Shown here in pieces: positions 5,059-6,914 of a DNA stretch of 25,807 nt. The position numbers and the translations under genes are program-made. Origin of the DNA: Candidatus Vogelbacteria bacterium (GTDB lineage Bacteria; Patescibacteriota; Minisyncoccia; Phycocordibacterales; JACRKE01); contig JACRKE010000031.1 in the NCBI GenBank assembly GCA_016215335.1, positions 1 to 25,807 on the forward strand, in the 5' to 3' direction. How positions within the stretch are numbered: position 1 is the stretch's first letter; each line of letters starts with the position of its first letter. The notes under the pieces were generated by a model, which was not told the DNA's origin, searched no databases, and was given only the letters and a program-made list of their open reading frames with translations.

Positions 5059-5289
5059 ATGTTACAAGACGTACCAGAAGGGCACAAAAGGACTATTGTC
5101 TTAGTGGCTATCGCCACATTTATTATCGGCGGACTGCTCGGCTATACTTTAGGCCTAAAGCAGGGAAGCGCGGGACAAGTTTCTCAATTAGAATTTGAGT
5201 CCACTTCACCTGCTTCGGATACTTCCGGAGCAGTGGATGTGGAAGTATACAAAAATCCTTTCGAAGAATCAGCTAATCCATTTAGATAA
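5059..5289 (+). CDS. Small single-pass membrane protein (76 aa), translationally coupled to the downstream Cys-module protein.
   Basis: ATG start at 5059. One hydrophobic helix ('TIVLVAIATFIIGGLLGYTLGL') is followed by a polar tail. Its stop TAA at 5287-5289 lies 2 nt before the ATG of the next gene at 5292. A possible sigma70-like promoter (-10 TATGAT/TACAAT) lies about 20-40 nt upstream. Confidence 0.45.
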   Translation: MLQDVPEGHKRTIVLVAIATFIIGGLLGYTLGLKQGSAGQVSQLEFESTSPASDTSGAVDVEVYKNPFEESANPFR

Positions 5290-5291
5290 AT

Positions 5292-6914
5292 ATGATCAAC
5301 TCTTTTTTTATTCGCGGGGCCATACTCTCTGCTCTCGTATTTTCTTTCGGCCTTGTGGCTTTGGCAGAGAGCTCGCGGATAACATATCCAATTGCGGAAC
5401 TTGCTAACTGTGACAGCCGTGAAGCGTGCAAGGCGTACTGTAAGACGCCGAAGATTGCATGCGTAAATTTTGCAGAGAAGCAGAATATTGTGAGTCCTGA
5501 AGAAGCGCAAAATATGCGCGCCGCGATAGAAAATGCGAATTCATTGGAAAATTCCGATCGCGCTCTCGGCCGTGATGATCTGGTCGGCTCGGTCAAGCCT
5601 TCAGAAAGAGGACGAGGCAAAGATATGCGTCAGAATAATCCGCCGAGACCGAGAGTGAAAAGACCGAAGCCAAAGGAGCAGGAGCCGGAAATCAATGAGG
5701 AAAAAGCCCTCGCGGCAATCAAGGAATTCGGCGGTCCCGGTGGTTGCAAGGACATGGATTCGTGTGGAACATTCTGTGACGATGATAAAAACTCAAATGT
5801 TTGTTTCGCTTATGCGAAGGAGCATGGACTAATTAATGAAGCCGAACTAACAAAAGTTGAAAAGATGATGAATGCGGTTGGTCCCGGCGGATGTAAGGGG
5901 CCCGCTTGTAGAACTTACTGTGACGCGCCCGGCCACGAAGAGGAGTGTTTAGCATTCGCAAAAGAGAACGGTCTAATCCCTCCGGAAGAGTTGAAGCAGA
6001 TAGAAAAAATGATGACGGAGACGGGTCCCGGCGGATGCAAGGGACGCGCTTGTGAGAATTTCTGTGAAGATCCGGCGAACATAGATGCATGTATTGAGTT
6101 TGCCCGCAAAAACGGCATGATGTCAGAAGAGGACTACAAGAGAGCAATTACTCCCGGTCCCGGCGGATGCAAAGGGTCCGCCTGCGCGACATATTGTGAT
6201 GACCCTACTCGAAGCGACGAGTGCATGAAATTTTATGGCGGGGGCAGAGAAAATAAAGAAGGAGTTGATGGACGCGTACCACTTGACCGCTTTGACGACC
6301 CTCGCCTGGATGATGAAGCAATGTTAAATTTTCGCAAAGGCGTACCTACTGGTCCCGGCGGTTGCAAAGGACAAGAGTGTGATGCGTATTGTCGCAAGCC
6401 GGAGCATGGTGAGGAGTGTCGAAGTTTCTTTGGTGGACCGGAAAATAGAGGCGAAGACGGATCGAGAGATGCAATGTTTGGACGTGAAGAAGAGGGTGGA
6501 GATTGGGGAAGAATGATGCCACCTCCTGAATTTAATAGAGAACAAGAAGGCTCGTGGGATAGACGACCTGACGGCCAGTTTCCGCGAAAAGAAGAAGACA
6601 GAAGGGAAGACCGAATGATGCCTCGTCCTGGATTTGAAGAAGGCGACCGCAACATGATGGAGCTCATTAATTTGAGGCCTGGAGAAGAAAGTAATAAAGT
6701 GGGGGAGATGATCAATAATTTCCGACCCGAAGACCGACCTGGCATGCGAAATTTCACGAGAGACCAGAGAGAGCGACGAGAGGGAGAACAGGGGCAAGGC
6801 CCGGCGTTCAATAACCAGATGCCATTCTTGCCTCCTCCGATTCAACCAAGTACAGAACAGTCAGGTTCTCTCGGTGCCTCGGTAATAAACTTCTTCAGAT
6901 CAATTTTGCGCTAA
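5292..6914 (+). CDS. Secreted cysteine-rich repeat protein: six tandem four-Cys modules (GPGGCKG-x-C-x3-C-x8-C-x2-[FY]A[KR]xNG[LM]), then an R/E/D/G/P/M-rich low-complexity tail.
   Basis: The 540-aa ORF starts at ATG 5292. It has a signal peptide ('MINSFFIRGAILSALVFSFGLVALA') and 24 Cys arranged in six modules of about 48 aa: C40/C46/C50/C57, then modules beginning GPGGCK at aa 147, 196, 245, 290 and 354. Each module ends with a conserved 'FAKENGLI..EEL' helix-like segment. The C-terminal ~160 aa are charged and low-complexity. No family recognised from memory. Confidence 0.7.
   Translation: MINSFFIRGAILSALVFSFGLVALAESSRITYPIAELANCDSREACKAYCKTPKIACVNFAEKQNIVSPEEAQNMRAAIENANSLENSDRALGRDDLVGSVKPSERGRGKDMRQNNPPRPRVKRPKPKEQEPEINEEKALAAIKEFGGPGGCKDMDSCGTFCDDDKNSNVCFAYAKEHGLINEAELTKVEKMMNAVGPGGCKGPACRTYCDAPGHEEECLAFAKENGLIPPEELKQIEKMMTETGPGGCKGRACENFCEDPANIDACIEFARKNGMMSEEDYKRAITPGPGGCKGSACATYCDDPTRSDECMKFYGGGRENKEGVDGRVPLDRFDDPRLDDEAMLNFRKGVPTGPGGCKGQECDAYCRKPEHGEECRSFFGGPENRGEDGSRDAMFGREEEGGDWGRMMPPPEFNREQEGSWDRRPDGQFPRKEEDRREDRMMPRPGFEEGDRNMMELINLRPGEESNKVGEMINNFRPEDRPGMRNFTRDQRERREGEQGQGPAFNNQMPFLPPPIQPSTEQSGSLGASVINFFRSILR
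5403..6440 (+). repeat. Tandem coding repeats of about 141-144 bp (the cysteine modules), with the core 'GGTCCCGGCGGATGCAAGGG' recurring at 5736, 5880, 6024, 6165 and 6352.
   Basis: The motif instances were read directly. Spacings are 144, 144, 141 and 187 bp. These are intragenic tandem duplications and are not CRISPR-like, because the repeat units are coding and diverged. Confidence 0.6.

Follow-up and report, generated by a model that had tools for sequence, protein, structure and literature searches.

What is encoded by two adjacent genes, both annotated as hypothetical proteins, on a contig of Candidatus Vogelbacteria, and why are they found together? The window analysed here is the whole contig (25,807 bp) from a metagenome-assembled genome. 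The gene pair HZA95_03040/HZA95_03045 encodes a small membrane protein, whose C-terminus carries Asn-Pro-Phe (NPF) motifs, and a large protein built from modules with four cysteines each. The module family and the gene pair are new, confined to Parcubacteria and annotated as hypothetical everywhere, and the conservation of the NPF partner gene is the main new result. We tentatively read the pair as a component of the cell envelope.

A first-pass annotation of this stretch had described a two-gene operon in which the start codon of the large gene lies 2 nt after the stop codon of the small one. Both statements hold, since the two open reading frames (ORFs) lie on the plus strand, the junction reads TAA-AT-ATG, and tight spacing and pairing are conserved. 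In the first three relatives examined a small same-strand gene precedes the large one, and all of these small genes end in NPF motifs. Among 86 fetched loci, a small gene encoding a transmembrane (TM) segment and NPF motifs is located directly upstream of the large gene at 83; the other three are cut at the 5' end, so that the partner is present at 83 of 83 testable loci. The intergenic gap is mostly between -32 and +45 nt and does not exceed 45 nt in 60 of 72 cases. No neighbour other than the NPF partner is conserved across the related loci: genes for PilB, pilin, SecD, a trypsin-like protease, a PD-(D/E)XK protein and VKOR each occur at only 3-11 of them. That the two genes stay paired although the rest of the synteny is lost speaks for a partnership of their products, either physical or in assembly.

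The partner proteins are 67-130 residues long. A short N-terminus (median 7 aa) is followed by one TM helix, which often ends in G-G-Y-Y-x-G, by a variable spacer rich in Ala, Glu and Lys and, always at the very end, by two to four NP[F/L/Y] repeats with a period of about eight residues (e.g. NPFADVKTNPLEDVKTNPYENVKTNPFQ-stop). Four repeats are found in 63 of 71 partners, and the third residue is position-specific in the order F, L, Y/F, F. The type found in the window has two repeats, and at all four loci with a two-repeat partner the large protein has six modules. N66, P67, N73, P74 and F75 are invariant in the partner alignment, as are the last two NP(F) motifs. A profile search with the partner retrieved only 'hypothetical proteins' of Parcubacteria without a Pfam domain, among them the protein of the window itself (P0289). 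Neither Pfam nor NCBIfam gave a match above cut-off, and the PDB gave chance matches to the TM segment only. A precursor of a ribosomally synthesized and post-translationally modified peptide and a toxin-immunity pair were considered and rejected: modifying enzymes and other conserved neighbours are absent, and the partner has an N-terminal TM segment.

The large protein was also described as secreted, which agrees with its Sec-type signal peptide and A-L-A cleavage motif; a lipobox and a twin-arginine motif were absent from the signal peptide by sequence inspection and regular expressions. The six four-Cys modules and 24 Cys of the first-pass annotation are found in the 540-residue product, with clusters at residues 40/46/50/57, 152/158/162/171, 201/206/210/219, 249/254/258/267, 293/298/302/311 and 358/363/367/376. 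The strict pattern GPGGCKG-x-C proposed for them has to be corrected. The actual spacing is C-x4/5-C-x3-C-x6/8/9-C, and GPGGCK precedes five of the six clusters, the first having AELANC instead. The conserved 'FAKENGLI..EEL' helix that was said to follow is the third helix of modules 0-3, whereas modules 4 and 5 end in FYGGG and FFGGP. Tandem duplications of about 144 bp had been seen in the underlying DNA. A DNA repeat search does find four copies of about 50 nt (66-78% identity) at 5880, 6024, 6156 and 6351, spaced by 144, 132 and 195 nt, but they are only weakly visible and Tandem Repeats Finder reported no repeat within the ORF (5292-6914). Since repetition at the DNA level is weak, the module duplications are old and visible mainly in the protein. 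A frameshift or pseudogene had been named as a possible objection; the ORF is intact in relatives. A scan for promoters and terminators gave nothing above shuffled controls.

Relatives of the large protein are numerous. A word-indexed search yielded at least 858 homologues, all named sources being Parcubacteria/Patescibacteria. In a HMMER search of 1.84 billion representatives with a profile of 112 modules, 1,895 proteins were found at E<=1e-3 and 1,619 at E<=1e-10; the best 150 matches contain 6-13 modules each. The module family is large and discrete. When one genome per GTDB species was scanned, 169 stretches were confirmed. The best 80 of these 169 loci are all from Patescibacteria and belong to Vogel-, Azam-, Kaiser-, Colwell-, Ryan-, Sung-, Wildermuth-, Zambryski- and Kuenenbacteria as well as 'Paceibacterota'. 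The host of the window, for which the first-pass annotation had considered an episymbiont, is a bacterium of the Candidate Phyla Radiation (CPR). No relatives were found in the viral contigs searched. Many third-party-assembly records (among loci L007-L084) are titled 'uncultured Candidatus Saccharibacteria bacterium' and hold pairs near-identical in type to those of Kaiserbacteria; presumably, this label is a placeholder for Patescibacteria.

The architecture was described from the 120 best homologues, and motifs and Cys were counted in 240. The order of elements is constant: a signal peptide, a first module with [F/Y]P[I/V]xELGxC, further four-Cys modules, a low-complexity stalk and a C-terminal hydrophobic or amphipathic stretch. 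Often an 'RFxxF..E..FR' helix stands before a truncated module at the end of the array (motif RF..F..FR in 62/240). The first-module motif is found in 211 of 240 homologues, and its four Cys (C40, C46, C50 and C57 in the window) are invariant in the alignment of full-length homologues. An N-terminal hydrophobic run is present in 225/240. By pattern count the 120 best homologues have 5-13 modules (mode 9) and some genome loci have 4; a variable copy number, which the first-pass annotation had suggested as a check, is thus a property of the family (4-13). The module consensus is GPGGC[RK]G(x)xxC[RK]xYC[ED][DN]PxHx[ED]EC[FLI]xFAxxNGL[IM]xxEExxRAKK. No Cys is missing from 1,998 of the 2,038 module instances; almost all of the others are alignments that are cut short, and in one aligned module the third Cys is substituted. 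The four-Cys pattern is not due to chance. A His that follows further on from the third Cys is semi-conserved (68%) and alternates with Asn (27%). The proteins are acidic with a median isoelectric point of 4.9. About a quarter of the listed homologues carry Kazal domains, in some as an extra C-terminal domain, and the PVCG motif is present in 28/240. The protein of the window is a short, six-module variant with a charged tail; its nearest relatives are P0005 (52% identity) and P0026 (46%).

The charged low-complexity C-terminus of about 160 residues was recognized correctly in the first-pass annotation: the last ~160 residues are rich in R/E/G/P/F/N/D/M, with a predicted local distance difference test score (pLDDT) below 50. 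An internal 23-nt repeat (6511-6533 and 6613-6635) encodes RMMPPPEF and RMMPRPGF. The judgement that such a tail is very unusual does not stand, because low-complexity tails are typical of the family (median length 212 aa; composition P 15.5%, G 12.6%, E 9.6%, Q 8.5%, F 6%) and resemble the wall-spanning stalks in surface proteins of Gram-positive bacteria. Two antisense ORFs (192 and 173 aa; 6233-6845, minus strand) overlap the tail region; most likely they are artefacts of composition, the coding strand being rich in purines. Two features had been missed, the C-terminal NPF repeats of the small protein and the C-terminal amphipathic helix of the large one. In 72% of the 240 homologues, compared to 3% of control windows, hydrophobic residues make up at least 60% of the last 15 positions, and 52% of the homologues end in R or K. 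Since the longest uncharged run at the C-terminus does not exceed 13 residues, this stretch is an amphipathic rather than a TM helix.

As defined here, a member of the family has a signal peptide, a first module with [FY]P[IV]xELxxC, at least four modules spaced C-x4/5-C-x3-C-x8-C and a low-complexity stalk, and it is preceded on the same strand by a gene for a protein of 67-130 aa with one TM segment and C-terminal NP[FLY] repeats. All of these features are present in the window and recur in relatives.

AlphaFold2 with 76 homologues predicted the modules of the window protein at pLDDT 88-97, and linker (residues 90-129) and tail below 50. For a single module modelled with 112 module sequences (pLDDT 92.7) a PGG turn and three helices at positions 10-16, 21-30 and 36-47 were obtained. 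In this model Cys 2 and 3 are located on helix A, one turn apart, Cys 4 at the start of helix B and Cys 1 in the preceding turn. Foldseek found no match below E 3 in the PDB, and the best hit of a PDB sequence search with the module profile was the SAP domain of Ku70 (E 0.8). Pfam gave only SHOCT_2 (PF20612) for the large protein, at 16.9 bits against a cut-off of 24, and NCBIfam only a chance match (12 bits, cut-off 450). The fold of the module is thus predicted with confidence and has no detectable relative among solved structures. The first-pass annotation could not name a domain family either, and neither these sub-threshold matches nor the Cys motifs treated below point to a known four-Cys family. 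Binding of DNA by a SAP- or SHOCT-like motif was rejected, the similarity being sub-threshold and the modules acidic. A defence system or a phage origin was likewise rejected, as PADLOC and PHROGs gave no matches and the viral contigs no relatives. The literature searched contains no description of the GPGGC module family or the gene pair; one paper with a Cys motif of Patescibacteria concerns an unrelated immunoglobulin-like protein.

Several known cysteine and sorting motifs were compared with the family. Regular expressions for ferredoxin, radical-SAM, rubredoxin and heme c motifs (C-x2-C-x2-C-x3-C, C-x3-C-x2-C, paired CxxC, CxxCH) found none in the window protein and 0-12/240 in the family. 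The motif of the zinc-binding anti-sigma (ZAS) domain (H-x3-C-x2-C) occurs in none of the 240 members, window protein included. CHCH or twin-Cx3C arrangements (two Cx9C or two Cx3C) were found in 1-3/240 and not in the window, and the Kazal domain (PF00050/PF07648; six Cys plus PVCG) is absent from the window protein. The sortase signal LPXTG is absent from the window protein and present in 2/240, and no NCBIfam CTERM model matched. The combination of motif, TM helix of about 20 aa and C-terminal basic cluster, which marks substrates of sortase or of exosortase, archaeosortase and rhombosortase, was not found. The lipobox [LVI][ASTVI][GAS]C is absent from the window protein and present in 1/240. 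An EH domain, i.e. an EF-hand pair of about 95 aa with a Trp-lined NPF pocket, was not found.

We propose that the two proteins form a lineage-specific cell-envelope pair of Parcubacteria, in which a disulfide-stapled array is held at the membrane by an NPF-tailed anchor. This proposal is possible, although we would stop short of calling it probable. After export, each module would be stapled by two disulfides, and the stapled modules together would make up an extracellular repeat array that is stable, acidic and rod-like and is borne on a Pro/Gly-rich or charged stalk. The small protein may insert with its N-terminus inside and its C-terminus outside. Its NPF tail may then dock on the module array, or the C-terminal helix of the large protein may sit at the membrane beside the partner, or both; either contact would hold and organise the array at the cell surface. 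The pair would act as a structural or interaction scaffold of the envelope and not as an enzyme. According to bioRxiv 10.1101/335083, the envelope of CPR bacteria is Gram-positive-like and lacks an outer membrane.

Two disulfides per module are plausible; alternatively, the four Cys might bind a metal. In that case each module would be a Cys4 site for Zn, Fe or Cu, and the array would serve as an extracellular metal store, buffer or redox element. Four invariant Cys within about 20 residues of a compact domain, the semi-conserved His (68%) after the third Cys and the acidity of the modules are in line with this idea, as are the anoxic groundwaters inhabited by many CPR bacteria, where thiols could persist. 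Disulfides are nevertheless favoured over metal sites, because CxxC, ZAS, ferredoxin, radical-SAM and heme spacings are missing, export is of the Sec type and the His alternates with Asn. Loading of a cofactor is unlikely for similar reasons, since metal and cofactor motifs are absent and the signal peptide is of the Sec type without a twin-arginine motif. Kazal domains are disulfide-dependent, and their presence in some homologues, VKOR near some loci and the enrichment of MdbA-like oxidoreductases in CPR also favour disulfides. Oxidative-folding machinery of the MdbA/DsbA-VKOR type is common in CPR bacteria. As to MdbA-like oxidoreductases, bioRxiv 10.1101/335083 describes them as widespread and enriched in CPR bacteria, with the VKOR family most often adjacent. 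Co-loss of Cys across the 2,038 modules gave no pairing signal, all four Cys being essentially invariant. We regard metal binding as quite unlikely.

That the two proteins do not interact at all, the large one being anchored by its own C-terminal helix or released and the NPF protein having a separate role and being merely co-transcribed, seems doubtful to much the same degree. The enrichment of the C-terminal amphipathic helix in the family agrees with it. However, adjacency at 83 of 83 loci across deep divergence, while the other neighbours change, is hard to understand without functional coupling, and the partner persists where the helix is missing. It is kept at six loci (L005, L018, L024, L076, L077, L085) at which the large protein has neither tail nor C-terminal helix, and this ties the partner to the module array, which is therefore the candidate binding site of the NPF tail. 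The position-specific repeats suggest ordered docking rather than generic stickiness. The C-terminal part of the partner is acidic (net charge about -4) and K/R residues are denser at the N-terminus, which favours the C-out topology. Other observations weigh against our proposal. The positive-inside rule is ambiguous for the partner (N>C in 25, N=C in 24, N<C in 22); the C-terminal helix of the large protein is not associated with G-Y-Y-x-G at the end of the partner's TM segment (2x2 counts 34/17/12/3); and four Cys converging on one site could, as discussed, bind metal. The adhesin, metal-binding or toxin-like array considered in the first-pass annotation is not directly supported. A host-attachment adhesin of an episymbiotic lifestyle, with the small protein only as its anchor, is unlikely, though less so than the two preceding explanations. 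It would account for secretion, tandem repeats of variable number (4-13) and a long stalk, and CPR lineages are thought to be host-associated. Host-specific adhesins are usually hypervariable, multi-copy and patchy in distribution. The pair, by contrast, was found once at each locus retrieved, and every locus came from a different assembly. Its module consensus shows strong conservation over many candidate phyla, and Pfam detected no adhesin-type domain. This one-per-locus, strongly conserved and lineage-wide distribution does not favour an adhesin, which would in any case be compatible with a scaffold, since it concerns what the scaffold binds. Kazal-type inhibitor domains appended in many homologues and a trypsin-like protease next to the pair at 6 loci could point to a protective coat or inhibitor shield against extracellular proteases. 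We consider this highly improbable, as the window protein and most homologues are without a Kazal domain and the modules have no similarity to any inhibitor fold.

A more far-reaching version of the scaffold proposal takes the partner as a signal-anchor protein with four position-specific NP[F/L/Y/F] octads at its very C-terminus. An extended octad would have about the length of one module, and the octads might zipper along consecutive disulfide-stapled three-helix modules. Such a surface-tethering system might build the principal protein coat of Parcubacteria cells, which could be the surface layer observed by electron cryomicroscopy. We put this forward as a speculation that is unlikely to hold.

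Features of the gene pair in the window (coordinates refer to the 25,807-bp contig)
Feature	Position	Strand	Residues	Description	Basis
Small gene HZA95_03040, 'hypothetical protein'	5059..5289	+	76 aa	short N-terminus, one TM helix, acidic tail ending in two NPF motifs	ORF
TM segment	5092..5157	+	12-33	TIVLVAIATFIIGGLLGYTLGL	aligned with the TM...G-G-Y-Y-x-G region of 41 homologues
C-terminal NPF repeat region	5245..5286	+	63-76	VYKNPFEESANPFR, up to the stop codon	alignment
Large gene HZA95_03045, 'hypothetical protein'	5292..6914	+	540 aa		ORF
Sec-type signal peptide	5292..5366	+	1-25	MINSFFIRGAILSALVFSFGLVALA; predicted cleavage after A-L-A, before ES	sequence
Module 0	5379..5495	+	30-68	invariant first module of the family, 'YPIAELxNC...', without GPGG	pLDDT 95-96
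Linker	5559..5678	+	90-129	disordered, basic/Pro-rich	pLDDT 38-41
Module 1	5730..5876	+	147-195	GGPGGCKDMDSC...; preceded by helix 136-146	sequence, model
Module 2	5877..6020	+	196-243	canonical three-helix module	sequence; single-module AlphaFold model
Module 3	6021..6152	+	244-287		sequence, model
Module 4	6153..6245	+	288-318	truncated, without third helix	sequence, model
Module 5	6348..6446	+	353-385	terminal; preceded by the family-conserved 'RFDD..LDDEAMLNFR' helix	sequence, model
Tail	6447..6866	+	386-525	disordered, charged	pLDDT 33-46, family tail composition
C-terminal helix	6867..6911	+	526-540	amphipathic, hydrophobic; GSLGASVINFFRSILR region	model helix 528-539

The remaining contig is for the most part ordinary chromosomal DNA with genes for CreD, a MurA-like protein, MreB, RRF, RseP, Def, Fmt, PriA, a histidine kinase and a cyclophilin. 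The CreD-family inner-membrane protein (7007-8269, minus strand; Pfam E 1e-129; NCBIfam name 'cell envelope integrity protein CreD') is convergent with the large gene, lies 93 nt downstream of it and is not a conserved neighbour elsewhere. The divergent neighbour on the other side (4145-4882, minus strand) encodes a secreted hypothetical protein of 245 aa with a signal peptide and low-complexity 'VN/KVN' repeats; it matches no family and is not conserved beside the pair at other loci. At the left end an 803-aa ORF (133-2544, minus strand) matches the Pfam Major Vault Protein shoulder (E 6e-22) and a Vault_3 repeat (E 5e-10), an unexpected gene on a contig of Candidatus Vogelbacteria. Together with a 341-aa ORF without a Pfam match (2834-3859, plus strand) it occupies positions 1-3900, where the GC content is 0.51-0.60, mostly above 0.53, compared to 0.38-0.47 over most of the rest. 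This high-GC end could be due to horizontal acquisition or to a chimeric assembly. Near related pairs, type IV pilus genes (PilB/T2SSE, PilC/T2SSF, N-methyl pilins) occur at several loci in an inconsistent manner (L003, 7717-11575; L005, 8303-9355; L041, L047, L059 and L078). At three Azambacteria loci (L017, L037, L049) VKOR (PF07884, E 6e-26) is located about 1-1.5 kb upstream on the opposite strand, and the large proteins of these loci also carry Kazal domains.

Among the uncultured bacteria of groundwater and sediments, the tiny Parcubacteria are some of the most abundant. To our knowledge, almost nothing is known about their surface proteins, and the cell surface is where any episymbiotic or scavenging lifestyle must act. 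The present analysis defines a domain that has no relatives in sequence or fold, introduces the C-terminal NP[FLY] repeats as a new short linear motif and shows that the two genes are strictly paired in many candidate phyla. The pair is a testable candidate for a core envelope component and provides a sequence marker for antibodies, metaproteomics and labelling in electron cryotomography of enrichment cultures. If the proposed contact between NPF tail and modules is true, it would be a new way to tether proteins to a bacterial membrane.

Known systems resemble the pair in parts. It belongs to the same class as the Parcubacteria-enriched families that Meheust et al. reported (bioRxiv 10.1101/335083; Nat Commun 2019, PMC6744442), which are Parcubacteria-confined, mostly hypothetical and often extracellular; the preprint text examined does not describe the GPGGC module, the NPF partner or the gene pair. 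The helix B-loop-helix C segment 'FAxxNGLIxxEExxxxKK' resembles SHOCT_2 (PF20612) and the helix-Gly-helix of SAP, but these matches are sub-threshold, and SAP-like DNA binding is unlikely because the modules are acidic. CHCH twin-Cx9C proteins and twin-Cx3C alpha/alpha hairpin toxins likewise have four Cys per unit and short helices, which two disulfides presumably hold together. The GPGGC module differs by its spacing (C-x4/5-C-x3-C-x8-C), by three helices with a GPGG turn and by its 4-13 tandem copies in a secreted bacterial protein. As in EH domain/NPF recognition in eukaryotic endocytosis, several Asn-Pro-Phe motifs are found on a flexible acidic tail beside an array of small all-helical domains, and by analogy this suggests that a motif is bound in a pocket. 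In its general kind the large protein resembles stalked tandem-repeat surface proteins. LPXTG/MSCRAMM-type surface proteins of Gram-positive bacteria have the same order of signal peptide, folded tandem repeats, Pro/Gly-rich stalk and C-terminal hydrophobic segment, often with a final basic residue. In contrast to these, the GPGGC family lacks LPXTG or another sorting motif and ends in an amphipathic instead of a TM segment, its repeats are alpha-helical and Cys-rich instead of immunoglobulin-like, and a dedicated small membrane partner gene is always present.

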